Assembly: GCA_001938485.1 (NCBI GenBank)
Contig: MQRK01228564.1
Coordinates: forward strand, 1 to 64,000
DNA from: Girardia tigrina
Lineage: Eukaryota
Length of the DNA stretch: 64,000 nt
Direction of reading: 5' to 3'
Part shown: in pieces, positions 3,547-52,225 of the stretch
How the letters are laid out: the number at the start of each line of letters is the position of its first letter
Position numbering within the stretch: the first letter of the stretch is position 1
Program-made: the position numbers and the translations under genes
Notes under the pieces: generated by a model
Seen by the model: only the letters and a program-made list of their open reading frames with translations
Databases searched by the model: none
What the model was told of the DNA's origin: nothing

Positions 3547-3997
3547 TATTAACAACATCGCAATTTGAATGCAAACATTTATTCACAACACAAACAGATT
3601 CTTCACAACCATTTTCAGTGGTCATCTTTCTTTGATTAATATAGTTTTTGATTATATATTTAAATATGAAAAAAATTAATGAATGGGGAAATTTTAATAT
3701 TACATTTTAATTCCTCATAATTTTTATTGGATAAAAATACATTATGTAATTTTTAAAATAAACATTAATTTGAAGAATATTAAATTTAATAAGTTAAAAT
3801 CGTTTACTGAAAATATTATTAAAATTCATAATTATCAAACTTTAATTAATTAGTACTTTAATTTAATATCATTAAATTAATTTCATTAGATTCAAATAAT
3901 TAATCAAATAACATATCAATCCCATCTGAGTAGGAGAGTCACAAATCTAAACAACATACAAACAACAAACTTACAACATTCCAAATTATCCCTCACA
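3547..3997 (-). mobile_element. Solo LTR, TG...TA family
   Basis: Minus strand reads TGTGAGGG...GTTAATA. 5-bp TSD ATAGT at 3542-3546 and 3998-4002. The 3' half is highly similar to 49421-49640, which is followed by a PBS and gag. Confidence 0.85.
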
Positions 3998-4941
3998 ATA
4001 GTAAGAATCAGTGCCGTATTTACCACAGGGTGGAACGGGCGGTCACCCGGGGCCCCCACATACAACGATAAAAAAATTTTATATGGTCAGAATTAGTGAA
4101 ACCAATTATTAAAAAATAAAAAAAAAAGTTTTATGATTGAAAAAGTTATTTTTTCTTTTGTTTTATTAAGCTTAATAATCGATTAATTGTTTTACTAAAC
4201 AGACATCTGAGCGCTTACTTAATTTGTACGTAGTTTCCAGTCTTTCAGTCGCCGTGACACCCTCACTTAGTTTCCTTAATCATTCAAGTGATTCATGTGA
4301 CTCTTGTGCATCAGAGTGAGTAAGTTGTAATCAATTTTGCAATCAATTATTGTGACCATGCAGCTGATTTGGATTTTATGATTATTTCTAAACTTTGATA
4401 GCTGACTTTTCGTACGTCGACCGTAAACTATGTAAATGCTACTCACAGTTTTACTTGCGTATTACTTTTGATTTTCCATTCATTTATTGAAATAATTATT
4501 GAAATAATTTTTATTTATTTTATTTTATTGGTGCAGATCATCTCACTTTATGGATAGTGATCGCCATAGATGTCCTCGTGTATATCTCAGTAGTGCTGAA
4601 AAGCGGAAAGGGCCAAAGAAAAAGACGAGAAGGAGGCTGCCGTAATGGCGAAAACGCGACGCATAACTGACTTCATGGCTAAAAGTGTGGCAACCAGTGA
4701 GGTGCATGACGTTACTGATACAGTTGCTGAAAATGTTAGTGAGCATGTCATTGAAGCTGTGGAGGTACAATGTACTAAAGACACTATTGCACAGATGGAA
4801 GTCATGCAGTATTCCGATAGTACTGATTCTGCATTAAAAGAGAAGGATATTGGTCTATGGCCGAAGAACCTGTCATCTGTCACGACCCCTTTTGTTTACA
4901 CCATTTTGCAGACTCGGAGCCCCCAATGACTATTAAGGGTC

Positions 4942-5409
4942 AGTCACAACCCCACCTCAACTTAGGAATAACTTAAACTTAGCTAGCAGCTCTCATATTT
5001 ACCCTATTATCCAATTGGGGTCGGACGTCTCTTCTCACTCAACATCTGCCTGGCAGTGAAGAGTTTGAAGGACCTTCGGGTTCGGATAAAGACGGGATGG
5101 ACTAAGGGCCCCCCACCTGGCGAAGTGTCGCTCGGGGATGATTTTGCTCTGACGATTACCTCGTAAACCTTATTGTTATGTACGCTATGTATTAGAAAAC
5201 TTAATGCACTGATATGTCTGTATGTCAACTTGTGGCGTTTGTATGTTGTGTCTTATAATGACTTGCTGCACTGTGTGTGTCTTATCTAAAGCTGAATCGA
5301 CTAATTTCGACACCTCTGGCTATCTAGAAACCTTGATTAACTACGTCATTCTAACAATATGATTAAGGCTTAATAATTAAAATATGGAGACGTTACTCTG
5401 GCACCCAAC
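4942..5409 (+). mobile_element. Nested Gypsy-type LTR (AGT...ACT) followed by a tRNA-Lys-like PBS
   Basis: AGTCAC at 4942 ... GTTACT at 5397, then TGGCACCCAAC at 5399 (compare tRNA-Lys PBS TGGCGCCCAAC). An AT-rich leader follows. No second LTR is seen. Confidence 0.5.
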
Positions 5410-6617
5410 AGCAGTTCTACCTTAGCTTGTCAAATGGATTCTCGAAATTTGTCTAGAGTATTTTCTAGCCGTCGCTCAACTATTCCGAGTAAAACTTTCC
5501 CTCAAATTTTAAATCAATAAAATCCGAATTTTATTTCACCACCAATTCCACACTTAATTTATAACTCGTCAAACTCACAAGTGCAGCCTCGAAACTAAAT
5601 TCGAATTCCTTATAGTGACACAATTCTCATAACCCAAATAAATAAATCATTGAAATCATATAAAATTCGCTTTAAGTTAATTTAAGTAGTTATATACTAA
5701 TTCCTAATCGATTGTGAAAATATCGATATCGTGGTTTGAAAATCTCATTTAAGGCCTTCTCTCAGGTAATAAAAATCAAATTCATCAATTAATTTAGATT
5801 CAAATTCGTAAGCGCAAAATATTCGAAATTAAGTTCTGTGAAACCGTAATGGACTTAAACCTAAATTCTCGCTTGGACTAAACTTGAATAATTAGAATTA
5901 AAAAATTTTTCATATTGAATTTATAAAATTTTACACGACATAATTCAAGCTCATGGTTATTGAATTTTAAATTAAAATTTAAATCAGAACTCGAATTTAG
6001 AGGCGAAATAAGTTCTTAAATAAACTTAAATAAATTAATTGTATTCTTAAAAAAAATAATGAAAAAGTCATAAAATAAATCCTACAGTAAAAACGAATTT
6101 CTACAACCACGATGAAATCAATTTAAATATATTCAGGTAAATTTGGAAAATTCCGTTTGTTTAAATATATCAGTTAATATATCAGTTAATGTTGTTAAAC
6201 CAAATTTGTCGATTATTCTCAAACGGAATTCTGATGGGTCGGCGTAAAACTATCTCACCCGCGGACCTGGCATGTCGAGCCACGTTCCGAGATGGCTGCC
6301 CTCGGCGAATGCAGCCGAAGTGATCGACCTGATGTCGATGATGATGAGCGGACGCTCCCCGTCGCTCTCGGGCGGCGCGTTTAACTCTCCTGGAAACTGG
6401 GGCATGACGAAGATGGCGATGGCAACGGACGACGGACTACTAACAGTATTTGGACCTTTTAGGTATGTTAAAATAGTAAACTCGTTAAGATATTAGTAAC
6501 AATAATAATAATAGCCATTTCATCAATAAAACTTTATTCAATAACATAAGAAAAATTTGAAAAAAGATGGCAATTTTTTATTAAAAACAAATAAACGCCA
6601 TTTAAAAATATATTTTA

Positions 6618-6658
6618 GGATAATATATTTCGACGGTTTAACCGTCATCATCAGATCA
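6618..6658 (-). ncRNA. Minimal type I hammerhead ribozyme motif
   Basis: GAU-CUGAUGA-U-GACGG(UUAAA)CCGUC-GAA-AUAUAU-U-AUC: conserved core, 5-bp stem II, palindromic stem III, 3-bp stem I. Confidence 0.65.
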
Positions 6659-6857
6659 CTGATTATGTTCTTTTTTNNNNNNNNNNNNNNNNNNNNNNNN
6701 NNNNNNNNNNNNNNNNNNNNGTAAGTCTAATCGAAAACTCTTAACAAATTAGTTGAGAGTGCTGTTTGGACATTGATTTTAGGATCACATGATCTTATCA
6801 ACAATGCTTCACATGACACTCTCTCCCAATAATTTTTAAAATGCTTGCACAAAATCT

Positions 6858-6898
6858 TAATCTGATGATGACGGTTAAACCGTCGAAATATATTATCC
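6858..6898 (+). ncRNA. Minimal type I hammerhead ribozyme motif (second copy)
   Basis: CTGATGA at 6862, GACGG/CCGTC stem, GAAA at 6885, ATATAT palindrome. Stem I is only 2 bp in this copy. Confidence 0.55.
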
Positions 6899-6986
6899 TA
6901 AAATATATTTTTAAATGGCGTTTATTTGTTTTTAATAAGAAAAATTAATACTGAAATTTACATTTAGTTCTTCAACGGTTTCGTAG

Positions 6987-7770
6987 AATGTTAGAGTCGA
7001 TCTGTCAGAATCCGGTATTTCGTCAGAACTGTGTGATACCCCTGTTGCTAATATCGGTGTCGCCGAATGGTGTTTTCCAATGTTCGTCCTTGCAAACCTG
7101 TATTCAAATGGTAATTTTCTACTTTGATTTTGTGGGCGATTTGTGTGACAAAACTTGTGCTTGTCTTTGAAATTATTTTTTGTGTTATTGTTTGTTTTTG
7201 AAATGTCATTTCTTTTTATAGGCCTACAGGGACACACAGGTCTTCAACTTCTCCAATCGGTGAGCCGGTCTGGCTTTCTGGATCGCCGGTTGGTTGACAA
7301 TGTAAGTGTGTTGCTTCAGATTTTTAAAATTTTTATAATTTTTATTTTTATTATAGGATCTGGTGGTTGTATGCCGGCGTGGTGGTGTGTTGCTGCCAGA
7401 CCTGCATGCGGTCATCTGAGGCCGCAATTCTAATTTTGGACTGTGGGATGAATCAGGTGAGTTTTTTAATTAATTTTTGTACTTGTTAATTAATATCTTT
7501 CAGCTTCACAGGGATGCACCCCCGCCGGGGAGAGCCGCACCAACCCGGGGGCGGGCCCCAACCAACGGCCCCATCAAGACCTTCCGCTGAAGGGTCGGCG
7601 GGCCCCGAAGGTCTTCTGGATTACCCTACAGGTAACTTGTGATTTTTATGTCTAGTTTTTAATTAAATTGTTTCTCGTTTTTAGCTCCCAGCTCCTTCCA
7701 AAGCCCCCCGCGACGACTCACACGGCCCCCTCTACAGTGACATTTTCGGTTTTTTCTTTTTTAATAAATG
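6987..7770 (+). other. Putative five-exon spliced transcription unit inside the LTR-type insertion
   Basis: GC-rich blocks 6987-7110, 7222-7259/7301, 7357-7456, 7504-7631 and 7685-~7770, separated by short T-rich GT...AG introns. AATAAA at ~7763. Confidence 0.6.
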
Positions 7771-13139: not shown

Positions 13140-16100
13140 ATGTTAAGACGAATTCTATTAAACGTTCTGATTTTAATTAAAGAATTAGTTATTCTCGTAA
13201 CTAAAACGTACAATTTTTTCTCTGTGTCTTACAAAAAACTTTCCAGAAAAGTAATTTTTTAATTTTTGCGAAAAAAAATTGGAAAAAAAACTCGATTGAA
13301 TGAAAACTATTATTTTCCTTGTAATCGAATTTCAGGCCGCTCAATATCAGAGTATTAAATACGAAATGGTGCCGCTGTCGCCACTGTCGCGATATCGATT
13401 GAGTAATTTGAGATTGATTGATCGATCACTTTGAATTTCATTGCGGTTTTTTCCTATTTTCGTCGATTTTCTTCCTCGTCGTCGTCGCCCGCTCCTTCAG
13501 GCATCGTTCGCCGCAAGATCCTCGTGCTCGATCTCGATGAGACGCTGATCCACTCGGTGCTCGACGGCATGGTCAGGCCCACAGTCAAGCCGGGCACCCC
13601 GCCTGACTTTGTGCTGCGGGTGGAGATCGATCGGCACCCCGTTCGGTTCTTCGTGCACAAGAGACCTCACGTCGATTATTTTCTTGACATAGTACGTGTG
13701 TGTTTGTTGTTTTGGTGGCGGTGTTGGTTTGGATTTGTCGATTTCCAATCGGGATTAATATTTATCATGAGCCGCTCGAGATTTACCACATGCATTACAA
13801 CCCCAGGGGATTAAGCCAAAGTATAATAAACCTCCTTGAACTTTATTAAATCCGGAATGAGCCACTTGAGATTTATCGTTTGTATATATAAGTCGTCCGA
13901 AATTTATCTAATACGGAATAAGCCGCTTGTAATTTATCACTCGTAAAACAAGTGCCGAAATTTGTCGAATGTAAAATGAACCCCCGAAACTAATCTAATA
14001 TAGAATTACCTCCAAACAAAATTTATCAAATTTAGAAAGATTACCAAAAATATATCGATTGTAAAATAACCCTCCACCGAAATTTATCAAATGTTGAACA
14101 ATCTCCAGGAACTAATCAAATATAGAATTAGCTCTCCTTCCAAAAATTTATCTATTGTAAAATAACCCTCCACCAAAGTTTTGAAATGCAGAATAAACCC
14201 TCTGTAATTTATTACACTTTAGGATTTTTGGAATTTTAAAGAGAATTCATTAAAATTTTTCATAATTGTAAATATGAAAGGAAAAACATTTTGAAAATAA
14301 AATCACTATAATTAAATTAAGTGAAGTAACATTTTAATTTTTATACCTCCAAAATGTATTAAATGTAAAATAAACCCTCCGAAAATTTTCAAATGTGAAA
14401 AAACCCTCTAATTCATTGCAAGGAAAACAAGTCCTGAAGTTTAGCAAAATACGCCTCCAAAATTTATCAAATCTAAAATTACACTTCCCAAAAAAATCAT
14501 CAAATGTAGATACACCAAGGCCCCGCTTTGCGTCTCTATTCGGTTCCGAAAGTTGAGGCGCTAAATGAGTTTCGACGCATAACGAATATGTGGTAATATT
14601 GATCAGAAAGACTGTTACAATATATCTATCTGAATAAAAATCAAAATAAAACATATTTTTATTAAGAAATAGTACGAAAATTGCGCTCTTAATCCATTAA
14701 AATTAATTAATAATATAAAATCAGTAAAAGTAATTGTGCATTATATTAAGAACACCAACATGGGTTTTCGAACTTTTATTTTCAATACAGTCAGAATTGT
14801 CTTTTGGACAACTCTCAGCAAAACTCTCGTCATTCGACATCGTTCTAAATTGATAATTTTTTATTAATGTTTGTTAATAAACAATTATTCGAACAAATAT
14901 TTCATTATTTTCTGATTTTATTTTTGCAGTTCAAATTTCGTAATTTTAGTATCAATTTTATTTAAACAATATAATTTATTGAAAGAAAGAACATTTATTT
15001 AATTCAAAACTTAGTTAAAACTATTTATTTTATTTAAATTATAATATGAAAATTTGAAAAGATTTAATATTTTTAATGTTTTTAAATATCTTATGTTGTA
15101 CTTTAAAATATAAATTATACTCGAATAATTATTTATCGTGAACATCCAAAATATCAATTTTCCATCTGGGTGGGAGAAACACATTTCCAAATACTAAACT
15201 CAACATACAAAATTCAACAAACCAATTTCAACATACAAAATTTAAAATATTCCTCACACATTATAAATATAATTATCCAAACTTCTTTCAAAATCAAAAT
15301 TTACTTTTTAAAAAATTTTTCCAAAGTGGTTTGTACTGCATTGTCTTTTTTCCGCATAAATTTCTTCATAGTAATTTATGCTACCCAGAACTGATCTGTT
15401 CACCCTCGAACTTCTTTCGTGATTAGGGTCATCTTGATTAAATATCTGCAGAGTTTGATCAATTAATTGAAAAGCTTGAGCTAACCGTTTCGTCGTTAAC
15501 GTTTGTTCTACGGCAATATCATCGATTTTTTTTCTCAGAATCACTACTGTATGCTGCCTGAAATTATATTTCCATTAATTGAGAAGTTGTTATCTCTTCA
15601 TTGTGCGAATCCAATAGTTCTTCTATATCTTCGACCTCCATTCCTTCAACTTGCAATGCGGATGCTAAGTCAACTATCTCTTTAATTGCAGTTATCCTAT
15701 CATTATTCGTGTCATTTTCCAATGGGCTATGTACACATTCCGGCCATAATTTACGCCAACAACCGTTCATGCTTTTGTTGGACACTTCATTCCAAGATCC
15801 TGCAATATATTTAATCCCATCTAATATAGTGAAGTTTTTCCAGAAAGTTTTCATTGTAATATTATCAATTCCTTCCATGGTTGTGAAAAGTTCCCTGAAA
15901 TTTTATATGGCAAAAAATAAAAAAAATCAATCGATGCAAAAGCGAATAGACGCATAGCGGGGCTTTGGTACATTATTTTCTTGACATAGTATGTGTGTGC
16001 TTGCTGTTTTGGTGGCGGTGTTGGTTTGGATTTGTCGATTTCCGATCGGGATTTAGTGTAAGTAAACCCCTCACCGAAATTGAATCTACTACCGAAATCG

Positions 16101-19100
16101 AATTTTTAATGTAATTTATCAGATGTAAAAGAAGATTCGAAGTCTATCAAATGTAAAATAGCCCTCCACCGAAATTTATCAAATGTAGAACGATCCCAAG
16201 AAACTAATCTAATATAGAATTAGCCTCCCTCCCCAAAACTTATCAAATGTAAAATAACCCCGGATAATTTTCAAATTTTTATCAATTAGTAAAACCAAAT
16301 TAAGTTAAAATTAAACAAAACAAGTAATATAAAATTTATTATCTAAAACATTTAATGCACTGAAAACGTGACGCAAATTATTAATACCATCTTTCACGAA
16401 TCTCTACTTCCGCATAATAATAATCTTGTAAGTTTACTAATTCTATTCTTTATTTTTGTTACAATATGATTTGATTGTTTGAGCATGAGTACCTGTTTCC
16501 ATAAAAATAAGCATCTGTTTGTTACTCTACAAATGGAATTGAATAATTGACACTTCTATGATCTAATTCAAATAAATTAAGGTTTTTATAAGCTTTCCAC
16601 TGTTCTGGTTGTATAATGCTACCTGCTTTAACCACCTTGTTAATAATTGGGGTCATTGAAATTTGTATTTCTGTTATCAACAATTCGGATGTACCTTAGA
16701 AATGCTTTAATATTGGTTTTTACCATTCAAAATACCCAATAGGACAGTGTCGGGCAACCGATGCACCGCCAAAAATTCTAGGGGCGCCGCGAACATTTTT
16801 GTAAAATATTTAAAATCGTTAGTTATTGAACTTTTGGTCGAATTAAAAGAAAATGTTTTAAAAAATATTTTTTGTATGAACAGATATGGGTAGTCAGATT
16901 GTTATTGTTAAGATTTGTATAGTTGCTTCGCAACGTAGCGGAATTGTCGACTGGTTTTGAATAAAAGCGATAAAATTTCTTTCTGTTGATGCACGCGCAC
17001 GGTTAGAAAAGATGAAAAAATACAATTGATACATTTCGGAGGTTTCGTCAAAGTATTGCTGTAGCAATATTAGTCGTATTTTTGCATCGTTATAAAACAC
17101 ACAGTAAAATCTGTTGGTTACAAAACAGTGAAAAATAATTTGTTGTGGCGCAAGAATCCTGTGCTTATAAATTATTTTTAGTGAGATTCTCACTCACTTT
17201 TTACTCAAGGTAATTTTAATTAAACATTATTAAGAAACGCTCTTATATTATGTTTTCTAAATTCCCTCAAAACTAAAATTTTTTTTAATAGTATAACAGG
17301 TGCACGCGAAAAAAAGTTTTAGGTTTAGGGCGCCACAACTCGAAAAAGGTTGCCCGACACTGCAATAGGATTTTGGTGTCTTCTAAATTGAAGATATTTT
17401 ACTTTATACCTGGTTCTTAAATTAGAGTATAACCATTCAAATGAAAAGGATTTATTGCGAATTAATTTTGTCATGAATAAATAACATTTTCGAATAGTTT
17501 TTTCAAGACTTTTTTAAGACTCGTTTGATTCTCTGATATGTTAATAGTCATATTTTCGATCTCGCAAAACATTATGTAAAAGCACTTCGATAACAACACA
17601 GTGGACTTTGAAATCTATTCCCCTTTTTAATACAAATCGACTTTGTAATGCCTTACAATTTTTAGTTTGATACTTCCAATCGTACCATTTAATTGATGAC
17701 CACAAACTATTTTCAAAATCATAATTTTTTAATTCTATGGCAATTCTCTATTTTATAATATGTAGGTTATATTTTATAATGTAAAGAATACAAAAAATAA
17801 TCAATTGTAGAACATGTGCCCAAATATTTTATGTGTAGAATAAGTCTCTTAAATATATTAAGTGTAGAATAATCACCCTGAAATTTGCATGTGTAGAAAA
17901 GACACCCCAAAACATATGCGGTGGTTATGATATATATGATCCCCGATGGAGATTGATTTTCTCTTTTGAAATTCTTTTATTTATTTCAAAAATTCTTTCG
18001 TATTGCTTCAATTCCACAAAGAAAATCAACAAAAATAAAAAATCCTATCAATTCTAGGGTTTAATTTTGGTATAATATGTTTGTCGTCCCTACGGAGTTT
18101 TTGGAAACTCCGTTCTCCCTCAAACCAAAAAATTAAAAAAAAATTTCTTTGTACCATTTTTAAATGATTTATATAACCATAAATGGTTATATTTATGGAC
18201 AAGACTTTAAATTTTTTTTCCAATATATTTGTTATTTTGCTAAAAATAATGTTATAATAATAATAATAGTAACTGTACCTATTGGGTAGCGTCACACATT
18301 AAAAGATGCTTTGTTAAATAATTTAAATAAATCAAAAAGTTTTTTTTGGAAATTTGATTTTTAATTATTTTTAAAAACTTTTAAAGTAAATTTATATTTA
18401 ATTATAATGAATTAGGATTTTTTGGGAATTTTCATAAACTATAAATGTTTATTTTAAGTGTCATTATATCGAAGCTCTTATCCGTGTGACTGTTATAATG
18501 CTACATCGGATTATGTGATTCAGATAGAACTTACGTAATCGGTAGAATAAGTATTACTAATAAGAAATAATAAAAGTTTTTGAAAAAAATCTTTTGAAAA
18601 ATTTCTTTTAATGAAAAATAATGGTAAATAATTCTTAGCAATACTGACAAAGAACAAATTTCAAAAAAAGTACGTAAGGGCTACCTTTAAAATATATAAA
18701 ATATTAAAAATATAATCAAAATTTTAATTTTTTTATAGGTCTAAATAACGTAATTAAACCAATATAAAATACGTGATGCTATCTCGAAAAAAGGCTTTTT
18801 TTATTAAATGGGCAACCAGTGGGTGAATTTTGCTCCATTTGAAGAAATTAATTGCGTAATTGTCGAATTCACAAACTAAACATCTTTTTCCGAATTACCG
18901 AATTAATAAAAAATATTTAAATAAAACATTTTTTGTTTAGTTTATTTTATAGTGCATTTTTAGATTTGGTATTTTTTATCTGGAGTTTTTTTGTATGAAA
19001 AAGTTTGAATTTAAAATGAAAACCATACCTCAGTAATTTACTTTTAATATTAGTAAAATTAGTTACTTTTATGGTTATAAATTCGGCAAAATTACCGTCC

Positions 19101-25100: not shown

Positions 25101-28100
25101 TAGTAGTAATAATAATAAAGATCATTTAATTAATTATCATCATTAAATTACGATCATCATTTAATTACTTATAACAAGTACATAACTTATCATAATTATT
25201 TAAAATACTGCTTATAATGACAATGGTTTTAATAAAAATATAATGATGATGGCAATTATACGTAACAAATAATGTAATAGATATGAAATGTAATTGACTC
25301 GTTTTATGACGCATTCTTTCCAAAAGAATTATTATAAGACCGTTCTTGACGAGTAAAAAGAAAAGACATCTGTGCTAGAGATCAGAAATAATTTTTATTT
25401 ACCAACATTTCTTGAACTGGTTTGTGCGACCAGAAATATTCAACATCTGTGCTACTGGTTATTTGAACAATGCCTAATCTCAGCGCTTTTTGTAAAATAT
25501 AATCGATTTTAACTTACTAATAATTATCTTTTTTTTGATCAAAAATTCTTTGATTTTGTTTTCTTTTGTTCATTCTGTTAAGTCTTATCAATACGATTGT
25601 CATGGTAATGATTCTTTCTTTCTCATGGAGTAAGAAAAATTTACAAAAAGGAAAAAACATTGATGAGCACTAAAAATAATTAAGTAACCACATTCGGAAG
25701 TGTTTAGAACATTTAGAAGGGATATTTTTACAAATATATGTAGTGTCAAAAATGATTCTAATGACACTCAAAATGTAAAGTTTCCTTTAAATAGATCGAG
25801 GGCGGTTTGTGTATTGCATACTAATTTGGTCTAAAAATCTAATTGTTAGGGCTGTCATAACTCGTATATTGGAGGGATAAGTCGTCATCTCAAGTGCCGG
25901 ATTAATGATCATTAACAATTTAGTAGATATGCTCTTAATCATAATATGTAAGGCCGCCTCAATATGAAAAATTTTATTACGTATAATACTTTAAATATAA
26001 TACTAATCACTTACAATCTATCGATAAATTTTCGTAATGTATAAAAATTATAAACTTCTTTTTCTGATTCTGTATTACTTATTATAATATTGTAATTTAG
26101 ATAAAAGAACAATAGAAAGTCCATTAAAATACCAATATTATAATTTTACTTTGAGAAATTGTAAGTTCACAATATCCGGCAGGAGAATTTCTAAACATTT
26201 GAATTCACCTGATGTTTTATATGATAAGAAGTAAAGGCTTTTATGAATTCCTTATAGTTTTATTTAAATATTTCAAATTTTATTTTTTATATTTAAATAC
26301 AAAAAATTTTTTTATTAAATATTGTTATTTTGGGTTTGTATAAAAATGAATTGTTTTTTAAAAACATTGAAACTGTTTTGTAAATTTATTTAAATTTCAT
26401 TTCTATAGTTAATTCAAAAAGCTTTAAATATTATTTAAATAAACAATTTGATTTATTGTATATACACATTTTAACAACCTTTAAAATGAATTGAAATAGA
26501 CTGAACGCTTATATTGACATTTATTGACTAATTGTTCTGTGAAATGACTTTGGTTACTAAAGTTTGCGTTGAAGAAAGTGTTACAATATTAATTAAATAA
26601 TTTTGAGACCGGTTAATGAAGGGGATGATTACACAGCAACGTGTATTTTTATCGTAATATTTTATTCAAATACGTTTTTTAACAGCTTGCTTTGCTATTT
26701 TCAATCGATTTCCATTTTTTGCTATTTCAATTGTAGATTTAGTTTACATAAATTACGTTTAATTACTCAGATTTTCGGAATTCTTTAGAACTCAGTAATA
26801 TATAATAATTTTTTTGTAAAAAAAAATTTCACTATTAATTAATTTTTATGGCACTTTTCTTCAGTCAACATTATTAAGATATAAAGATATTTATTGTGGT
26901 TTGTTTAATTTGTGTTTTACTGAAGCGCGACACACGTGATTGTAGACCGATTAGGGTGATTTAAACAAATAAATCTTAATATATGTGACCGCAGCTGAGA
27001 AAACGGACCACAAGTCGCTGCACAGAAAGACCAGAAATCGCCTGTAATAGTGGATTGGTCAAAAATGGGGCTGTGAGGAATATTTGAATGTTTGATGTTT
27101 TGTGTTTGAATGTGTATGTTGATTTGGAAATGTGTCTCTCATACCCAGATGGATGATTAATGTTTTAATTCTTATTGTCTGAAAATATGTTATGTTTAAA
27201 TTTATTTTTAATTTCATATAATTTTAAAATTTTAAATAAGTTAATTAATTTTTATAATATTTAATAAATAAATCAAATTAATATTTTGATTAAAGAAAAT
27301 TAATTATCATTTTAATTATTATCCAATAAGTTTAGAGTGAATATTTTATTTAAATATTTATTTCCCCATTTTCTAAAAAAGTAATGAGAATTAAAACCAT
27401 TAATCAATTTCGCTTTGAATGCAAATGTACGAAAATTTTGACAAAGATTGTCTTGAGGACAATCAAAATTGTTGTTTAAATAAAAATATAAAAAATCAAA
27501 TTGGAGTTCTTAATAGGGGCAAAAGTAGTTCTCTATCTATTTCAATAGGTCAATCCATGCCCCTGAATACAGTATACATCATTTGTTGTTCTGACATATT
27601 TATAGGCCTTAGCTACTAACTTCAAGTGACTGAGTGAAAGGGACACAAGTCGGCCATTGTGTTTTCGTTAATAAATCATACCAATACTGAGGAAAATACT
27701 TTTTGTAATTAGGTATATATAGCGGGCTTGATGTTTAATTTCAGTGAAAATATTTAAAGTCAGATGAATCATTATTCAGACTGCTGCTGCTGTCTAAAAG
27801 CATTGCATAATAAACATAATGTTTCAATTCGCATTTTCTCAAAAATGAGTTTTTACGAATATGACCATTGTTAATATCTGTAGAAGAGTCAAATGATGGA
27901 ATATCAGCATGATTTTTTTGCACAGTTGTTAACTATTATGAGACTTAAACGTGACACTCTTAACTCAGTTTCCTACTTGTGGTCCCTTTTCTCAGATTTG
28001 GTTACATATTTTAAGATATTTTATCACCTTTTGTATCATTTAAATTAATGCAACATTAACAAATTTTATTCATTAAAAATTAATATTCGTCTCTCATTGT

Positions 28101-40868: not shown

Positions 40869-41672
40869 TCACACAATAGTCTTAATATGTTCACTTTCTT
40901 CCTGCAATATTTTGTTGTAAAACGAAAACAAATGAACACCTAAAGTCTCTTCAGACGCTTTCAAAATCCCATAAGTGTCCGATAATGCGGTGATATTTGT
41001 GAACAGAGAATTGAAATGCAACAAAACCCCCATGCTACAAATATCCCCATAGTGATGATTGTAGAAGTGTTCGAACATTGAAAACGTATTCGAAAAAAAC
41101 TGCGACAATTGTTTTCGAAAGTCTGCTGGTAACGCATCATTTTCGATTTTTCCCATTATATTTTCATCGTTTTTCAAAGCTTCAAAATCCACCATCAAAA
41201 CATCGATAAATAAAGGCCATGTTTTAATGGTTCCAGTGTGTGTCGTGAGATCGGTGTTCATGTAACTTTTATCGTTCAATGTCAATTTACAAAACGAGCT
41301 TTCATTTGCATAAAACGATTCTTCGTTTTCATTCAAAAATCCTGGTTGCGGTAACCCATAATATTGAATACTTCGACTGGCGTTTATACGGTTGATTGAT
41401 CTTTCATCGAGACAAAAGTACATCATTAAATTCCATAGATTTTTCAGTCGGTCGCTGATATGAAACACCATATATGCAATCCATTCATTCTCATCCACTT
41501 TCGGTGGAGCTCTTACAAAATCTTTCATTTGCATTCCTATTCGTAAAGTGTCAGGCATTCCGCCCTGAGGAGCAGAGCTTATCCCGTAATAAGTTTGGTG
41601 GGTTTTTTGAATCTCTTCCATCCGTTGACGTTTTACGGGACTGGAATAATCCGACACTGCATTACCGGCCAT
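40869..41672 (-). CDS. Divergent MOB kinase activator (Mob1/phocein family) protein, single exon, 267 aa
   Basis: VRAPPKVDENEWIA (compare VxLPxGEDLNEWIA), YFC, LPADF, FEHFYNHHY (H-x4-H), LHFNSLF. Uninterrupted ORF. Confidence 0.85.
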   Translation of the reverse strand: MAGNAVSDYSSPVKRQRMEEIQKTHQTYYGISSAPQGGMPDTLRIGMQMKDFVRAPPKVDENEWIAYMVFHISDRLKNLWNLMMYFCLDERSINRINASRSIQYYGLPQPGFLNENEESFYANESSFCKLTLNDKSYMNTDLTTHTGTIKTWPLFIDVLMVDFEALKNDENIMGKIENDALPADFRKQLSQFFSNTFSMFEHFYNHHYGDICSMGVLLHFNSLFTNITALSDTYGILKASEETLGVHLFSFYNKILQEESEHIKTIV

Positions 41673-42087
41673 ATCGAAACTAGTAAATTAATAATCTCAA
41701 GACAAATTCACGTCCAATTACTCAAGCTTTATTATTCAATCATTTCTTTCTTTAATCAGACATAAAATATTGATATATATATATATATTGATTTTTGAAG
41801 ATTTAAAATATCTAATATAAATAAAAAATAACATATCGAAAAAGTTTAGAAAAAAATCATAAATTTTTTTGAAAAACTTTAAATTCCATGAAACGAAAAA
41901 AAACGTTAAAATAAATTTATCAAAATTATCAATAAAAAAATAAAACTATCGAAATAAATAAACTTCTATTTAAATATAACGGTAACACATAATATTTTTC
42001 ATTTGTTTTACTGACTGTGATAAGTTGCCATTTTGAAAAAAATTGAACGAAACTATAACTCGTAAATAACGAATTTAAATCGGAAAA

Positions 42088-45000
42088 ATGGATTCACTAA
42101 ACACTTCATGTCCTGCCTTGTCATATATCATTGATTTATCGTCGATGGAAGTGTCGCCAATTTACAAAGGAAAATGTAAACCGAATGTCAAATCGAACAG
42201 TTGTAATAGTTCGTATTTGGACAACAATTCCTCGGACTCGGTGTCCGGTCAAGGTGACATGCCGATCTCGAGAAAAACTCTGGAATTATTTAGTAAAACG
42301 CCGCGAAGTCCCGTTAGTATTGACGACATTGAAAGAAAATTGAAAGAAGCGACCGACCGACGGCGATCGATTTTGAATGTGAATAATTTTAATTTACTAT
42401 TTAAAAGTGTACTTGATTATCGGTCCCCTGCGGTTTGAGAGTGGAAAAAAATAACTTAAAGCGCGTGCTACACATTATCTTCATTTAAGACCTTTAAATG
42501 TATCTTTTGTTTCAGTTTTATTAGAAATTTGATTCTGCTATTTTTAAAATATTTTTTTAGAATATTTTATAAATTACTTTAAGTCATTTTTAAAAATATT
42601 CTTTTAGTTTGAACAAAAATTATCAATTTTTCAAAATTTTTAAAATCGAATAAAAATTAGTAAGTAATAATAATAAAAGGAAAAATTCATTTTTATTCAA
42701 TGAAATTCGTATTTTAAAAATATTAAATATTAACTGAAATTAATAAAATAAAAAGTATATTTAAAATTCAAAAAAATTTAAGAATTAAATTAAAATAATT
42801 TGTCGACAAATTATCTGATAATAACTGAAAACCGAAAATATTTTAGATTTTAAATATAGGAAATTTTCAGAAATAAATTAAAATAATTAGTTGATTTATT
42901 TAAAAATTAACATTTTTTAACTGAAAAAAGTATTAAAAAGATTTTTATTTTGCATTAAAATGACTTATAAAATATTTGAAAAATTATTTAAATAAATAGC
43001 AGAATCAAATTTCTAGTTAAACCGAATCAAAATAGAAACTTAAACAACTTAAATGAAGATAATGTGCAAAAACGAATGTGCAACACGTAGTTTAATCTAA
43101 AATTTTCCATATAATTAAGTTTTCAAACCGCTGGGGACCGATAATCAAGCACACCAATATTTAATAAATATTAATAAAATATTTTTGAATACACCCGTAC
43201 ATTACTCCACTTACATAGGACACTCTATTCATAAGAGTTAAAAAACTAACAAAATAAATGCTATCTCACCATTTTTTCATTTTGATATAACATGCTCATT
43301 TTAAAAAGGCATTAATATATGAAGAAAGATTAATATATGAATATATAGATATGAATAATATAGATTAATATATGAAGAAAGCAGAAACAATAAATATAAA
43401 TACAAAAACACATACAAACCACAAACGCACCAAAAAATTCGAAGACACTAATATACAAGGAATATTTTTGAATGGTGTTTATTGTTTGGTATATTGTTTT
43501 AGGATTGTGTTTCTCCCACCCAGATGGAGATTGAAATTTTAAATACAGTCAACCCTCATTAATCCGAAAAATTAAAAATCGAATTCCTTTCGGATTGTGA
43601 AATAATTCGGATAATGAGGGAATATAAAATCAATATTATTATTAAATAAATNNNNNNNNNNNNNNNNNNNNNNNNNNNNNNNNNNNNNNNNNNNNNNNNN
43701 NNNNNNNNNNNNNNNNNNNNNNNNNNNNNNNNNNNNNNNNNNNNNNNNNNNNNNNNNNNNNNNNNNNNNNNNNNNNNNNNNNNNNNNNNNNNNNNNNNNN
43801 NNNNNNNNNNNNNNNNNNNNNNNNNNNNNNNNNNNNNNNNNNNNNNNNNNNNNNNNNNNNNNNNNNNNNNNNNNNNNNNNNNNNNNNNNNNNNNNNNNNN
43901 NNNNNNNNNNNNNNNNNNNNNNNNNNNNNNNNNNNNNNNNNNNNNNNNNNNNNNNNNNNNNNNNNNNNNNNNNNNNNNNNNNNNNNNNNNNNNNNNNNNN
44001 NNNNNNNNNNNNNNNNNNNNNNNNNNNNNNNNNNNNNNNNNNNNNNNNNNNNNNNNNNNNNNNNNNNNNNNNNNNNNNNNNNNNNNNNNNNNNNNNNNNN
44101 NNNNNNNNNNNNNNNNNNNNNNNNNNNNNNNNNNNNNNNNNNNNNNNNNNNNNNNNNNNNNNNNNNNNNNNNNNNNNNNNNNNNNNNNNNNNNNNNNNNN
44201 NNNNNNNNNNNNNNNNNNNNNNNNNNNNNNNNNNNNNNNNNNNNNNNNNNNNNNNNNNNNNNNNNNNNNNNNNNNNNNNNNNNNNNNNNNNNNNNNNNNN
44301 NNNNNNNNNNNNNNNNNNNNNNNNNNNNNNNNNNNNNNNNNNNNNNNNNNNNNNNNNNNNNNNNNNNNNNNNNNNNNNNNNNNNNNNNNNNNNNNNNNNN
44401 NNNNNNNNNNNNNNNNNNNNNNNNNNNNNNNNNNNNNNNNNNNNNNNNNNNNNNNNNNNNNNNNNNNNNNNNNNNNNNNNNNNNNNNNNNNNNNNNNNNN
44501 NNNNNNNNNNNNNNNNNNNNNNNNNNNNNNNNNNNNNNNNNNNNNNNNNNNNNNNNNNNNNNNNNNNNNNNNNNNNNNNNNNNNNNNNNNNNNNNNNNNN
44601 NNNNNNNNNNNNNNNNNNNNNNNNNNNATAATATTTTCTTAAAATAAATAAAAATTATTTCAAAATTAAAGTATAAATTATTTTTGTAATAATTAAATTG
44701 TAATTTAAATTTGTTTGAATAATAAGACGTTAAAGAATATTATTAATGATTATCAATCAAGAAGGATGACGAGCTACGCAAGTTTTACGGATAATTGTTC
44801 TAGTGGCAATTCAAATTGTGATATTAATAAATGTAAAGAAAACTCAATTATGCAACGCTACATACATTGGAGAGACGTTTCGTCATCTCTGTAAACGGAT
44901 TCAGGAGCATGGACGATTGGGTAAGGGGAGTAACACTGCTGGACAATCACAATTGATTAAATATTAAAACAAATATATATTTTTAATATTAACTGCATCA

Positions 45001-48000
45001 AAAGTGCAAAAAAATCAAATTCAAGAAATTCTTTTGTAATATTCTGATATTATAATTCACGAAATATTTACATTTGATATTTAATTTGATTTATGTTTTC
45101 ATATTTATATTTTCGTGAAATTGATTTTCAATAATGGGAAATTGATTTTCAATAATGTGAAATTGATTTTCATTTGTGTGAAATTGAATTGTAAAAGGTG
45201 TAGTATCAAAAATCTACAGAATTCCTTTATCAAATAACTCAGTATCACGAAGAGTTCAGGATATGTTTGATGACGTAGAAATAATAATAATTTATAGAAT
45301 TAAAAACAGCAAATTTTTTTGCCATTCAAGTTGATAAAAGTACAGATGTCGCTAATTTTGCTGTTTTGCTTGTAATAGCAAGATATTTGTATAATAAAGA
45401 AGTTGAAGAAAATTTTTTATTTTGTCACAATTTATCAGAGCACACAAGAGGAGAGGATATATTTAATGCTATTGATGATTATTTTAAAAATAAAGGCATT
45501 GTTTGGGTTAAGTGTTGCAGATTATGTACGGATGGTACTAAATCTATATCTGGAATTTACTCTGGTCTCCGTAGTTATGTCATGAAAGTGGCTCCTAACA
45601 TAAATTGGAGCTACTGTTGCAACCATTGGCAAAATTTAGAATCTAAGAGCCTGCCTTGTGGATTAAAACTGGTCCTTGAAGAAACTGTGAAGGTAGTTAA
45701 TTTTATAAAATTGAAAGCCTCAAACTCTAGAATTTTCAAAGCTCTGTGTAACGAAATGCTTAGTTCTTATTCTGAATTACTTTTTCACGCAGAAGTTAGA
45801 TGGCTTTCGTGTGGTACAAGTTTTTTTCCTTTCCAACTTTCTTCTAAATTGTACAATGAAAAATGGCTTCAGGGTCTGTCATATTTATCATATATTTTTT
45901 TAAAAATTAATAACTTAAATTTAAGTCTTCAAAATACTTCGATAAATATATTTAATGTGTCTACTAAAATTAAATATATGGTTAAAAAATTGATTTTTGG
46001 AAATTGTGTATTGAAAATGACCAACATGAAGTATTTTAAAATTTACATAATTTTTTATCTGAAAATAAATTACTACCCCCTACCCAGAGATAAACCAGCA
46101 GATAATTTAACATTTACAAGAACTAAAATTAGATTTTCAAAAATATTTTCCAAAACCTGAAGATAAAAACTATTGGATTATAAATCCATTTTAAGAAGAA
46201 TATTTTCAAGTGGCCGATTTAACAATCAAAAACAAAGAGAAATTAATAGAACTATATCCGGATACAACTTTAAAAGGCGATTCTAAAGCAAAAAAATCTA
46301 CTTAATTTTTGGATAGATATTACCACCGAATTTGAAGTTCTTTCTGATAAAACTTATTAATTTTTGTCACCGTTTACAAGTATAGAGCTTGTAGAACGAA
46401 CTTTTTCTTCCTATATATTTATTAAAAATAAATATCGTAATAAGTTGAATGCTAGTCCAGATTTAAGATTATATCTGACATCTGTTGATCCTGACATTAA
46501 AAAATAAATGTTTAATTAATAAATGTTTCAAAACTCATTTTTGTGTGTGAAAAATAAAAAGAAAAAAATCTTTTACACAAAATCTTTATTAAATTAAAAA
46601 ACTACCAAAATTTTGTTTATTAAAGTAAAATTGTTGATTGAATTTTTTTTATTGAGTTTTTTGTTTAACATTTATTTTCGACCCCCGATTGCTAGGATTA
46701 ACAAGATGGGAGACATAAAAAAATACTAATTAGATTAAAAAACATATATTAAAGAAAAGTCATATATCAAATTCCACCGGGTGGCATTAAGTAAATTAAT
46801 TTAAAATTTAAATTAAATTAAAATTTAATGTTGAAATTGCGTGTACTACACTCATATTAATGTTATTAATTTTAATAAGGTCTGACATTTCATCTGATAA
46901 CAGAAAATTAATTCTTTTGGCATCCTCAAAATATTCTTGGCACTCCAATACCATTGCATACAATCGTTTAACTCTTAGGGAATCTAAAAATTTGATTTAA
47001 AGTGAATGGAAACATTCCATGGAAATATTCTTGCAGACCGTGTCCAAAAGCGCAATAAACACTTGCTTGTAAATCACCCTATTAGGTTCGTGATTAAAAT
47101 TGGAAGTCATAATTTTGTAAACTTTATTTCTACTACATTTTTCATTATTGAAACAAATTTATGAGGAACAATATTTTAATTACATAATCCAGATCTCAAA
47201 ATTCTAAATATAAATAATAATATATCGATAAATATATAAATATGTTATTTTATTCAATTTTGATTTTTTTTGATTTTAAGTCATTCGATTATAAATTATT
47301 TCTTTTTTTTATTTGTTTTTTAATAAAATTGCAAAAATAACTTACCAATTTAAAATACAAAAATATTTAGCAATATTTAAATTTATTATTTTATACAGAT
47401 TCATTAATTATAAAATTTTTAATATATATATATATCTATATTTTATCTATTATTTATCGAATTTTAATTTGCACAATTTCCAACTGCCTTTTAACTTTAA
47501 ATTATCTTTTTTTATTACATCTCTGACAACAAAAATTTTATCAAAAAATTCTTCCGAATAACTCTTAAAATAAATGATAAACAATTAAAATTCAATTATT
47601 TATGATATTAACTTTTTTAAAATTAATTAAGATTTTTTTTACTAATAACTGTTTAAAACTTTTGATTTTATTTTAGAGATTATTTATAACAATTAATTAT
47701 TTCCAAAAATTTAAAGAATGAGCTTGTTCTTTTTTAAGAATTTAAAAGGTTTTTATTTTAAAGAATTATTTCATTCTAATTATTATTTTTAATTTACTTA
47801 AAATACAAATATGATTTTTAAAAAATATCAAAAATTTAAAGTTCACCAAAAGTAACCCCAACACACCCAAATCACTTTTCCGAGTTTAGAACAAATCTCT
47901 AACACTCATACTATAGCTCAATCACTCGCTCGCTCTCTTTTCAGCGTTTTTCTCGGATTTCTTTCAACTCTAGATACGCGTCTTCCAAACTCATTGATTT

Positions 48001-49059
48001 TTGTTTTAGCAATAATATTAAATTTTTATGATTCTAAGAAGACAGAAATTTTGATACCTTTTATTGTTTTTAAATACAATTCACAATATGATAATTTTTA
48101 AACTTTTCAGTAAGTACATAAATTCACAGAGTTCTCACATAAAGAAAATATTCTGATGAGGTAAAACAAATCAATATCTTATAAACATAAATAATTGATT
48201 TTTCCTTTTTCCACCTTCAATTTTTATTTTTTATCTAATTTAATTTTTTGTAAAAGTAAATATTAATATTATTATTTAATCCGGAACAGTGATGAAAATA
48301 CTAATTGTCGGGGTTCTTTTTGGTGATCTTTAAATTTTTGATATTTTTAAATTTTCGATATTTTTAAAAATCATATTTATATTTTAAATAAATCAAAAAT
48401 AATATTAAAAATTTTATTAANNNNNNNNNNNNNNNNNNNNNNNNNNNNNNNNNNNNNNNNNNNNNNNNNNNNNNNNNNNNNNNNNNNNNNNNNNNNNNNN
48501 NNNNNNNNNNNNNNNNNNNNNNNNNNNNNNNNNNNNNNNNNNNNNNNNNNNNNNNNNNNNNNNNNNNNNNNNNNNNNNNNNNNNNNNNNNNNNNNNNNNN
48601 NNNNNAAATGAATAAAATAACATTTATTTATTTATCGATATTATTATGTATATTTAGAATTTTTAGATCTGGATTATGAAATTGAAATAGTTCCTCATAA
48701 ATTTGTTTCAATAATGAAAATTGTGGTATAAATAAAAGTTTGCAAATTATGAATTCTGATTTCAATCACGAACCTAATACTAATAATTAATAATAAAAAT
48801 AAATAATATTAATATTAATATTTAATATATATTTAATAAAATATTATTTAATAATAATAATTAGGATAAGAAGCGAAAGAGCGAACTGGAGATCAACAAG
48901 ATATCGGCGGGAATTGAGACTCGGTCCAAGCAAATCAGTGAGATAATCAACAAAAAGAAAATCGAATTAGAGGAGGATATTCGCATCAAGTTTGAGAGAC
49001 GCCAACAGTTTTTGACTACTGAGCAACTGAAAGCCAAGAGAGAGGTCGATAATATATAA
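42088..49059 (+). CDS. Stathmin-like coiled-coil protein, two predicted exons
   Basis: Exon 42088-42378 (...TPRSPVSIDDIERKLKEATDRRRSILN|GT) joins in phase 0 to exon 48865-49059 (AG|DKKRKSELEINK...KFERRQQFL). Resembles stathmin SLEEIQKKLEAAEERRKS. The 3' end is uncertain and the intron contains gaps. Confidence 0.7.
43455..44829 (+). mobile_element. Probable TG...TA-family LTR interrupted by a pogo-like end and an assembly gap
   Basis: AGGAATATT...TCTCCCACCCAGATGG at 43458-43527. TA|CAGTCAACCCTCATTAATCCG at ~43546. Family-like 3' end CAAATTGTGATATTAATA at 44829. Flanks AATAT/AATGT (4/5). Confidence 0.55.
44830..44940 (+). mobile_element. Penelope-like GIY-YIG fragment
   Basis: CNATYIGETFRHLCKRIQEH. 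Confidence 0.75.
45190..46500 (+). mobile_element. hAT (Buster/Charlie, SCAND3/ZBED8-like) transposase remnant
   Basis: ARYL...EENFLFC...TRGEDIF...LCTDG...LLFHAEVRWLS in ORF 45366-46160, then ERTFS...IKNKYRNKL downstream. Frameshifted. Confidence 0.9.
47082..48777. mobile_element. mariner-type non-autonomous element with ~175-bp TIRs
   Basis: 47082-~47260 is an imperfect reverse complement of 48606-48777. Ends TA|TTAGGTTCGTGATT ... AATCACGAACCTAA|TA. Confidence 0.8.
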
Positions 49060-49169
49060 TAATTAGTCATTCTTACTTATTAAAAATATTGATTATTTAA
49101 CTAATTTTATTACTTAATTTTAAACATTACTTAATTTTAAACATTACTTAATTTTAAACATTCATTGTA

Positions 49170-49640
49170 TCCAGAATGGATTTTTCTTTAGTAAATGCAG
49201 CCTTCAATTTTTCTTTGTAATTTTTACCGTGCATCTGAATATTTTTTTATTGCCGATGGTGTCATAAACACAGTCACCATCCCTATTTTCCTCTCTTCTG
49301 CTATACCCATAATGTCGGTATAGCGTTCGAAATTATCAATGAAATCTTCCAAATCCGATTCTGATCCATTGAATTTTTCACATCCCATAATGTTCGTTGT
49401 CACGTGAGCCGTGGTCGCCATATTAACAACATCACAATTTGAATGCAAACATTTATTTACAACACAAACAGATTCTTCACAACAATTTTCAGAGGTCATC
49501 TTTCTTTGATTGATATAGTTTTTGATTAAATATTCAAATATGAAAAAATTAATGAATGGGAAATTTTAATATTACATTTTAATTTCTCATAATTTTATTT
49601 GATAAAAAGACATTATGTAATTTTTTAAATAAACATTTTA
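49170..49640 (-). mobile_element. 5' fragment of the TG...TA-family LTR retrotransposon: LTR 3' half, PBS, gag start
   Basis: The LTR ends ...GTTAATA at 49421, directly followed by TGGCGACCACG (tRNA-Arg-type PBS) and gag-like MATT...EKFNGSESDLEDFIDNFERY. Confidence 0.85.
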
Positions 49641-49659
49641 AATAAACATTTTATAAATT

Positions 49660-51190
49660 AGTCATTTTCATGAATTTGTTCGATTACATCCGCTATTAAC
49701 GGTATTGGAAAGGCTTCAAACTCTGTAAATCTATTAATAGTTGAGGCATAATCTACTACCATACGACGTTTTCCATTTTCATTATGTACTACTACGATTT
49801 GAGAACGCAAGGACGAATTGGAAGGCGCAATGACTCCTTCATTGCGTAGCTTTTTATTTTCATCACGTATGTACTTTTGATCTTTCTATCGTTTCCTTGA
49901 TGGGCAACGTATTAGAACGGCAACGAGGGGAACTCTGAGTCTGACATCTAAATTAGTACTTATGACATTTGATTGGCTCACTGCACCAACTGTGAGAATA
50001 GGGAGATTTCCTCCAAATTAAACTTAAATTCTTTGAACTGTAAAAGCACGGGCATACCAAGAATAACCGCGTCATAGATACCTTGAATGATAAAAATTCA
50101 GTCGAAAACTGGCTGATTTTGCCAATGTGTAGATAAATTTTTGCTTTTTCAATCACTTTTATAAGTGATCCACTTATAGACTGAGCTTTTTGATCAGTGG
50201 GAACAAGGTCTTTAATGTCACATTTTGAGAAATATTTTTACGTAAAAGAGATACCTCACTTCCAGTATCAATCAACCAATCCACCTTTGTTTTATTAACA
50301 TAACCTGTGACATATTACCGATTGCCTTGGTAATCTTTAAGAACTGATGATACTATAAATCAGAAGATTGCACTGTTGATGCCTTTTCTTGCATACTGAC
50401 TCAAAATGACCTTGGGTATTACATTTTCTGCAATACTTTTCTTTTGCGGGGCACTCTTTGTGTCCGTGTATTGACTTTGACCCAAACCAATAACAATTAC
50501 GGCCATGAGGAATCATCGTAGTTACAGATGAAATTTTATTTGTTGATACACTAACGTCTGAGGTTTGGTTATTGATGCTTTCCATGGCATTAATCGTTGA
50601 TTCTTCTACTAGAACCGCGATAGCATCATCTAAACTGAACGTTTTGGCATCTTAATGACATAACGCAAAAGTATGGCGTACAGTTTTGCGGTTTTCTCTA
50701 GAATATAATCCTTGAGCAAAAGCGTCACGCAATGCTTCACCAGAAAACGACGCCGGAAAATTGTAATACTTGATAATCTGCCTTAAAGTACTGACAAAAT
50801 CATGAATTGATTGATTTTGTGATTGCTCTGACGAGTATAGCGAATTCTCTCACTTAAAATATTTCTGCCTCCATTGAACTTTGCTGAAATAAAGTTTTTT
50901 GCACTATATACTGCATCATACCAGCCTTTATCTCACTTTCAGTTAAATCGGCCCAAACAACATCATCATAATACCTGGATATTTTCTCTCCGACCATAAC
51001 AGAAATATGTCCAACTTATCTTCCTCGGCCGGCTTGAAACGCATATAAAACGCTCAAACTGTGATATAAATCCATCAAATGCCTCAGTCGAATTACCAAT
51101 TAATTGAGGCTGATTCATTTTCATTTATTATTATTGTGAAAATTGTTGTAAAAGAAAAGATAAAGCTGTTCAATAACTTTATTTCACAAT
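49660..51190 (-). mobile_element. Gypsy (Mag-like) gag-protease-RT fragment
   Basis: Tandem knuckles ...HGHKECPAKEKYCRKCNTQGHFESVC, protease LIDTGSEVS (~50250-50280), RT start GKRRMVVDY...IN...FPIP (~49700-49780). Confidence 0.85.
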
Positions 51191-51888
51191 AATAATAATA
51201 ATAATTATAATAATAATACAGATAATTTGAAAATGTTTTTTATCTTTAATTCAAAAATTCAAAAATATAAGAGACATCAGAAATCCTTACAGGTTGAAAT
51301 AGAACGGTTTTATCATTTATCGATAAAGAGAATTTGAGGTTTTCTTTAAAGTTACGACTGTTGTAATCCTAAATTTTAAATGATTTTTTTTGAATTATTA
51401 AACGATTTTACGAGTTTGAATTATTGAAACATTTTACAACTTTGAAATTATTATCGAACAATCTTACGATTGAGTTTTGAGCATTTGATTATTTGAGATT
51501 TTATCAAACGCTTTTATGATTGTGGATTAGAACAGTTTTATTATTTGAGATTTTTTGCACTTTTTTACAATTGTGATATTTTGAAAATTTAATTATTTGT
51601 GGATTTATTGTTCGAACTGTTGTTTTGAATTTACATAACAATTTATTTTTCTTTGAACTAATTTTTAAAATTTATATTAAAAAATTTCCTGAATCCGATA
51701 CAAATCTGCTGAATGAATTATTTCAATTAGCAATTAAAGATTTTATTTGATCAGCAAAAATTTACTGTATACAAAACAATTCCGTCACTGCCACTGTACC
51801 ACTACTTCCGTTAGGTCTTCGGGGCAACCTGGAGATCGGGTGAAACCTTAATTAAGACACAAAAACTCCTTAAACATCGAATGGTCAC

Positions 51889-52225
51889 TGTGAGGGATAT
51901 TGGAATGATGTTTGAATTATGTTGAGTGATTGTTGAATGAGTTTTATAGTATGTTTGAGACTGGTTGGTGTTTGAAGCATGGCATCTCTCCCTAGACAAT
52001 TGAAGTCAATTATTGTCGAATTNNNNNNNNNNNNNNNNNAATTGTATAATAAATTAATTGTTATTTAACAATTAATTAAAAATACAATTGTTTTAATCTT
52101 TGCAGATTTTGGCAAATTTTTGAAAAATCAATTGAAGAAACAAGTCATGCCCCAGACGCTGATTACAGATCATTTTAGTCGTAATAAATCTTGTAATACG
52201 ACTTCGTCTGTTAATATCCTTAATA
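51889..52225 (+). mobile_element. Solo LTR, TG...TA family (contains a short gap)
   Basis: TGTGAGGGATATT...TCCTTAATA. TSD GTCAC at 51884-51888 and 52226-52230. Confidence 0.8.

Follow-up and report, generated by a model that had tools for sequence, protein, structure and literature searches.

TG...TA long terminal repeats in a Ty3/Gypsy retrotransposon lineage from Girardia tigrina

The dinucleotide CA at the ends of retroviruses and of retrotransposons with long terminal repeats (LTRs) is regarded as almost invariant, and the known exceptions are for the most part either plant Copia elements or animal lineages in which both ends are changed. Among the plant elements, the published accounts cited here describe TG...TA ends for AcCOPIA1 of onion (PMC5659011) and for 941 Copia copies of lotus, a plant in which constraint on the TGCA motif is weakest at its third base (PMC9804982). 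In addition, TGTA is one of seven motifs given for 50 plant genomes, a survey in which 89% of the classified non-TGCA elements are Copia (bioRxiv 10.1101/137141). Here, we describe a Ty3/Gypsy lineage with LTRs that start with TG and end with TA in a stretch of 64,000 nucleotides from Girardia tigrina (GenBank assembly GCA_001938485.1, contig MQRK01228564.1, positions 1 to 64,000; hereafter the window), which harbors five copies (A to E) and a probable sixth (F).

Like AcCOPIA1 and the other plant TGTA elements, this lineage has TG...TA termini that are one base away from TG...CA, and it occurs in many copies. It differs from most of them in that it is an animal lineage with the Gypsy order, the integrase (IN) following the reverse transcriptase (RT) and the RNase H (RH), comprises several families, and uses the LTR end also as gag coding sequence. 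For TARE1 of tomato, a one-base change of the LTR end is reported to have spread by replication to hundreds of copies (PMC3701649). As described there, TARE1 and TARE2 likewise have one LTR end altered in one base, the other end being canonical; however, in TARE1, a Copia element, the U3 (unique 3′) end is changed, which yields TA...CA and stems from the 3′ LTR, whereas here the U5 (unique 5′) end is affected and the change would come from the 5′ LTR. Among animals, heritable LTR ends other than TG...CA occur in the errantiviruses and the Zam clade with AGT...AnT ends (PMC5408687, PMC3601003), and in Troyka with CG...CG ends and a 3-bp target-site duplication (TSD) (PMC12440569). As far as these accounts go, both ends are changed in these lineages, whereas the present one departs only in the penultimate base of one end. 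Moreover, it combines TG...TA with a 5-bp TSD, unlike Troyka, and it has a TG start and, in its near-complete relative L001 introduced below, no room for env, unlike the errantiviruses and Zam. A motif-directed literature search found no animal Gypsy lineage with TG...TA, though Repbase reports, subscription papers and supplements may hold one; term searches of the text available for PMC8632968, PMC4202319 and PMC5408684 returned nothing on terminal bases. TG...TA itself being already known in plant Copia, the variant described here is a departure by one base at one end, in an animal clade of the Gypsy type for which a relative with CA ends is available.

The observation is carried by four solo LTRs. 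Copy A (3547..3997, minus strand, 451 nucleotides), copy B (14744..15258, minus strand, 515 nucleotides), copy C (27072..27515, plus strand, 444 nucleotides) and copy D (51889..52225, plus strand, 337 nucleotides including 17 N) each start with TGTGAGG, end with TTAATA and are bounded by their own perfect 5-bp TSD, namely ATAGT and CATTA (both given on the plus strand), GGGGC and GTCAC, respectively. In all four cases this agrees with the preliminary description of the window. Two random 5-mers of the window are identical with P = 0.0024, and a two-motif pattern of the LTR 5′ end matched three of the four solo LTRs as compared with none in 100 shuffles. A further TGTGAGG at 20135 was rejected as an LTR start, as no LTR similarity follows it.

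The preliminary description had itself raised the case that the TSD-defined boundary might move and leave TA in the flank. This was checked by shifting each LTR end from -6 to +6 or from -8 to +8 and trying TSD lengths of 4-7 bp. The AT-rich flanks of copies A, B and D permit other perfect repeats at shifted boundaries, which could speak for a misplaced boundary with TA as flanking or target DNA. However, the TG...TA boundary with a 5-bp TSD is the sole solution valid in all four solo LTRs, in copy C it is the unique solution at a TSD of at least 5 bp, and none of the alternative boundaries listed for copies A to D gives CA. Moreover, TA adjoins the primer-binding site (PBS) in copy E and in the relatives L001 and L002, exactly where the relative L003 has CA. 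The shifted-boundary test and the PBS junctions thus refute TA as flanking or target DNA, and we regard the probability of a misplaced boundary as negligible.

The copies had been called strongly diverged. This applies to copies A to D, which are pairwise 66-76% identical over aligned columns, whereas copies A and E are 93.6% identical over 220 nucleotides and thus represent one family. Likewise, the CCCAGATGG box ascribed to most copies is exact in two of the four solo LTRs and in the copy at 43455, carries one mismatch in the copy at 3547 and is absent from the copy at 51889. The LTR ends form an imperfect terminal repeat in which 5 to 10 of 14 bases match.

Copy E presents the same end in the context of an element. 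The 3′ part of its 5′ LTR (49421..49637, minus strand) ends with TTAATA at 49421 directly against a PBS that starts with TGG (49408..49420, minus strand), followed by the start of gag, in line with the preliminary description of a fifth copy. The gag 5′ fragment (49157..49499, minus strand) is open from an ATG within the LTR across the LTR/PBS junction; its frame is broken near 49225 and it is truncated near 49155. The PBS is putatively tRNA-Arg-like; no tRNA gene was found in the window. Copy E comprises just the last ~220 nucleotides of an LTR, the 5′ part of which is replaced by another Gypsy fragment. This gag-protease (PR)-RT fragment of a third Gypsy type (49661-51124, minus strand), presumably Mag-like, is fused directly to the broken LTR, with solo LTR D located immediately upstream of the fragment. 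The fragment was rejected as part of the copy E element, its gag and RT being unlike those of L001 on reading. Just downstream of the truncated gag, nested inverted repeats with arms of 93, 52 and 68 nucleotides surround a gap of 185 N (47080-48779), resembling a foldback element or a miniature inverted-repeat transposable element.

Copy F (43455..44829, plus strand) is a probable, decayed sixth copy. The assignment stands insofar as LTR 5′ motifs and the TTAATA end are present; however, it lacks the TG start, its flanks match at four of five positions, and it contains a gap of 976 N. It also holds an inserted repeat, and its two ends may belong to separate insertions.

Relatives with more complete internal regions came from a metagenome scan that returned 49 loci, among which only L001 to L004 resemble the lineage and L001 to L003 carry an LTR end; the remaining loci are weak zinc-knuckle matches and were left out of the end count. 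L001 is a near-complete 4.9-kb element with a gag 67% identical to P0001, the gag protein matched by copy E, and an LTR 85% identical to copy A, and judged by these identities it is a sister family of copy A. It consists of a partial 5′ LTR with a TTAATA end, PBS, gag, PR-RT-RH, IN, a purine tract and a 3′ LTR of 413 nucleotides (TGTGAGG...TTAATA) that runs into the flank. The pol region (PR-RT-RH and IN) contains one frameshift, and the LTR pair is identical at 228 of 246 nucleotides (92.7%). L002 provides a whole 5′ LTR with TG...TA adjoining the PBS. L003, which is 28% (gag), 64% (RT) and 55% (IN) identical to L001, reads TGTGAG...TTAACA and therefore has the canonical CA where L001 and L002 have TA; its end conforms to the consensus ...AACA given for animal Gypsy groups (PMC5408687, PMC3601003). 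A PBS starting with TGG adjoins the LTR in copy E and in L001, L002 and L003, and the purine tract adjoins the 3′ LTR without a spacer in L001 and L003.

The Pfam domains of L001 and L003 follow the order PR-RT-RH-IN, which is that of Gypsy, and the best solved structures for L001 are Ty3 RT-RH (E 5e-73), Ty3 IN (E 1.5e-23) and prototype foamy virus (PFV) IN (7e-19). By domain order and these structure matches the lineage is classified as Ty3/Gypsy (Metaviridae), and it has the direct terminal repeats (L001), the 5-bp TSD (all four solo LTRs), the PBS and the purine tract of an LTR retrotransposon. The Pfam scan of L001 and L003 gave no match to chromodomain families, and the IN of L001 runs straight into the 3′ LTR. 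Its pol ends with K-P-R-G-M-stop (L001:4460-4477), the last Met and the stop codon being formed by the final A of the purine tract together with bases one to five of the 3′ LTR; thus, both LTR ends overlap coding sequence in the L001 family. In L003 the pol stop lies before the purine tract. The L003 contig (1605-6465) contains the 3′ half of pol, one LTR, gag and the 5′ half of pol, with an RT/RH peptide repeated at both ends, and would represent either copies of the CA-ended relative in tandem array or a circular assembly of it that has been collapsed. The LTR 5′-end pattern had no match in viral_contigs or metagenome_contigs; the gag and integrase queries yielded no relative in viral_contigs, nor in genome_contigs beyond one 1.1-kb fragment, L050. 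Rfam returned one sub-threshold U6 match on L001 to L003, which was taken as chance.

The gag sequences connect the LTR ends to several families. The copy E fragment is 95% identical to P0001, a protein of 376 residues with a CCHC knuckle (zf-CCHC, E 3e-8; Ty3_capsid weak, E 0.12), and the Atlas neighbours of gag are retrotransposon gags. Ten more gag clusters are 28-67% identical, and all of them have Asn-Met-Ala-Thr near the N-terminus. This peptide results from in-frame translation of the LTR end and the PBS, the ATG at the junction being composed of the final A of the LTR and bases one and two of the PBS. MA[TS] occurs within the first 60 residues of 55 of 99 proteins (P0012-P0110), and where a residue precedes it, this is Asn in 39 of 42. 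As both AAC and AAT encode Asn, the change from a CA to a TA end is silent in gag. In copies A, B, C, D and F, the gag frame stays open over 32-53 codons of the LTR 3′ end and includes an ATG in every case. The encoded tail of A matches the P0001 cluster, that of B the P0014 cluster and that of D the P0017 cluster (26 of 26 residues, P0229); C is a relative of P0014 with no close match, and both C and F match loosely. Because these tails match different gag clusters, solo LTRs A, B and D are tied to three different Ty3/Gypsy families. With the gag frame open back into the LTR and the PBS itself coding (49421-49499, minus strand, and copies A-D and F), gag may start either at an ATG within the LTR or at the junction ATG. 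In the distant gags P0031 and P0038, the Asn ahead of Met-Ala-Thr is replaced by Tyr or Glu, so that LTRs of the wider clade would include other end sequences. A search for a longer, fused form of P0001 found none, which is weak evidence.

Within the clade, TA is present at nine of nine U5 ends (the six copies A to F, the LTR pair of L001 and the 5′ LTR of L002), and TG at six of seven U3 ends, the exception being copy F. A gag is available for four TA families (P0001, P0012, P0014 and P0017); these gags are 45-67% identical and share a clade of ten rows with 100% support in the Shimodaira-Hasegawa-like approximate likelihood ratio test, outside of which L003 is placed; the tree is a quick search on gag with 50 rows, 8 of 58 having been dropped by length, and a midpoint root. 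An alternative is that the copies inserted with CA and that each decayed to TA through a CpA-to-TpA process of the host or through AT drift. The host is AT-rich, C-to-T is a common mutation, and the copies are not young, given that the LTRs of L001 differ by about 7%. However, the same process should strike the CA of the left end on the other strand, yet TG is kept in six of seven cases. An internal control is provided by an unrelated Gypsy element at ~53604-57635 (minus strand), which retains TG...CA at both LTRs. In the solo LTRs, CpA is over-represented (observed/expected 1.26-1.45) and TpA under-represented (0.67-0.77), and the L001 LTR pair shows no excess of C>T (3 of 18 differences). 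Independent decay, which the preliminary description had likewise judged improbable, is therefore very unlikely, because TG...CA persists in the neighboring Gypsy and the LTRs show no depletion of CpA, and we consider this explanation already largely refuted. The end counts and the gag clade support reading TA as a heritable trait of the lineage rather than as independent decay. The control element itself is a decayed full-length copy with short LTRs of ~117 nucleotides, a TSD matching at four of five positions, and gag, PR, RT and IN remnants.

The ends of copy A were also followed in sequencing data. For this purpose, a 651-bp stretch around copy A was matched against two genomic runs of one organism, which gave 14,873 and 13,579 matching contigs. 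Summed depth amounts to about 90-830 in the left flank as compared with 0.5-4.8 million within the LTR, values that do not represent copy numbers. The terminal clip points with the best support are located at 3546/3547 (65 and 55 contigs) and at 3997-3999 (69-173 contigs), and the letters flanking them are mixed (agreement 0.40-0.45); these clip and variant statements refer to the best-supported positions, beside which there are 731 further clip positions and 16 further variant positions. Thus, copy A is a very abundant repeat with exactly these ends. A raw-read run of 2026, X21, contained 10 matching reads, all less than 90% alike, and wastewater, sediment and stromatolite runs shared small proportions of words with the query, which is no evidence of habitat.

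How did TA come to stand at one end of an entire clade? Most likely, the combination of TA at U5 and TG at U3 in this multi-family clade of compact Gypsy elements goes back to one founder C-to-T change at U5 that was copied by replication, the integrase tolerating either pyrimidine beside the A that is joined. A single change at the U5 end of the founder's 5′ LTR would have been passed to all progeny, given that the 5′ LTR serves as the template for U5 in the two new LTRs during standard LTR replication, a counterpart of the U3 model put forward for TARE1 (PMC3701649); both the direction from CA to TA and the single origin are presumed in this account. As no spacer separates the LTRs from PBS and purine tract, the cDNA ends might need little or no 3′ trimming, for which the U3 end of foamy virus is described as a precedent (PMC6784120). 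The preliminary description held that the integrase of the lineage accepts TA at U5, and the copies bounded by TSDs, the LTR pair of L001 and the CA-ended control in the window argue for this. Since the left end stays TG, so that CA has to be joined at U3, TA is likely tolerated by the integrase and not required. Its specificity would hence be relaxed and not switched, the same enzyme joining CA at U3 and TA at U5.

A switch, by which the integrase of the clade would prefer TA at U5 and read the two ends asymmetrically, is unlikely. It would agree with the retention of TA across families that are 45-67% identical in gag, without a reversion among the nine ends, and with the several differences within the imperfect terminal repeat; moreover, the position of the loop Gln discussed below is occupied by Asn in the TA element and by Ser in the CA element. 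Yet the U3 end still offers CA to the same enzyme, the difference between Asn and Ser is not diagnostic with one integrase per state, and the strong AT bias (the window has 31% GC) would by itself keep T once it is tolerated.

The residues in question belong to the active-site loop. Ty3 (PDB 4ol8, 7q5b) and foamy virus integrase (PDB 3oym and others) share the DDE core with the lineage and are its best structure matches, whereas the loop before the catalytic Glu reads HPQ in Ty3 and PFV, YHHN in L001 and YHHS in L003. According to structural accounts, the integrase loop wedges into the DNA end (PMC6784120, PMC3395085), and in the intasome of Rous sarcoma virus (RSV) the Gln of this loop is stacked onto the G that lies opposite the penultimate C (PMC7955051). 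By analogy, loss of the Gln contact could be permissive for TA, and the altered loop of the clade may, with less weight than the preceding steps, be a permissive one. It is possible, though rather doubtful, that an old and highly successful animal Gypsy clade lost the Pro-Gln contact of the loop, which would have freed the penultimate base, and that the Asn-Met coding of gag left only the silent C-to-T change, fixed at U5 alone. In the comparison of one integrase per state (L001 and L003), no residue unique to TA elements was shown.

Several points weigh against a founder change tolerated by the integrase. The altered loop is common to the CA-ended L003, so the loop alone does not explain TA, and the RSV integrase is described with a loop without Pro, yet its CA is kept (PMC7955051). 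The pol sequence comes from the sister family L001 and not from the window. Six of the ten gags of the clade (P0013, P0015, P0016, P0018, P0019 and P0022) are without a DNA end, the tree is drawn from gag alone, and L003 is the one CA-ended relative seen, which places origin and direction on thin sampling. Furthermore, the evidence on TA and CA consists of nine sampled ends rather than a genome-wide tally, and each main run has one A>G site at a level of at least 5% outside the listed variants, the same change that a CA class of copies would give. These latter points, together with the many clip positions outside the best-supported ones and with protein data in which Asn before Met is compatible with AAC as well as AAT, could be explained if TA and CA forms coexisted in these families, TA being a common variant and not a fixed trait. 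We consider such coexistence quite unlikely, as CA is found at none of the nine ends, which come from four or more families and from more than a single data set, and as none of the best-supported clip points lies where CA ends would be expected.

The preliminary description further assumed that standard annotation would miss or mis-bound the family, which is overstated. Strict TG...CA filters would indeed clip or drop copies; however, TGTA is contained in the LTR_retriever motif library (PMC8220671), and LTRharvest has also been run with one motif mismatch allowed (bioRxiv 10.1101/137141, PMC8220671). Standard pipelines are thus not necessarily missing intact TG...TA copies, and the practical value for annotation is modest. 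The motifs that PMC8220671 reports for the annelid surveyed do not include TGTA.

Beyond the lineage, the window contains transposon debris, including hAT-like, mariner, long interspersed nuclear element and other Gypsy fragments. Copies B and C lie within introns of a multi-exon gene (13360-30800, plus strand; exons near 13.4, 20.6 and 30.5-30.8 kb; Pfam NIF), which we take to be CTDNEP1/Dullard-like and the introns of which are long and filled with transposable elements. The exon-intron junction near 13675 is partly repeated at 15972 (95% over 82 nucleotides). At 40869-41687 (minus strand), a single open reading frame of 272 amino acids without an intron encodes a Mob1/phocein domain (E 1.5e-19) of very diverged appearance and is perhaps a retrocopy or a lineage-specific paralogue.

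The presence of TA at one end across several families and at very high copy number indicates that TA is a workable substrate over long times. The CA-ended and TA-ended relatives therefore offer a clean natural comparison for end recognition by integrases. If the loss of the loop contact indeed freed the penultimate base, the two integrases, which are 55% identical, would constitute a natural pair for asking why CA is otherwise invariant.

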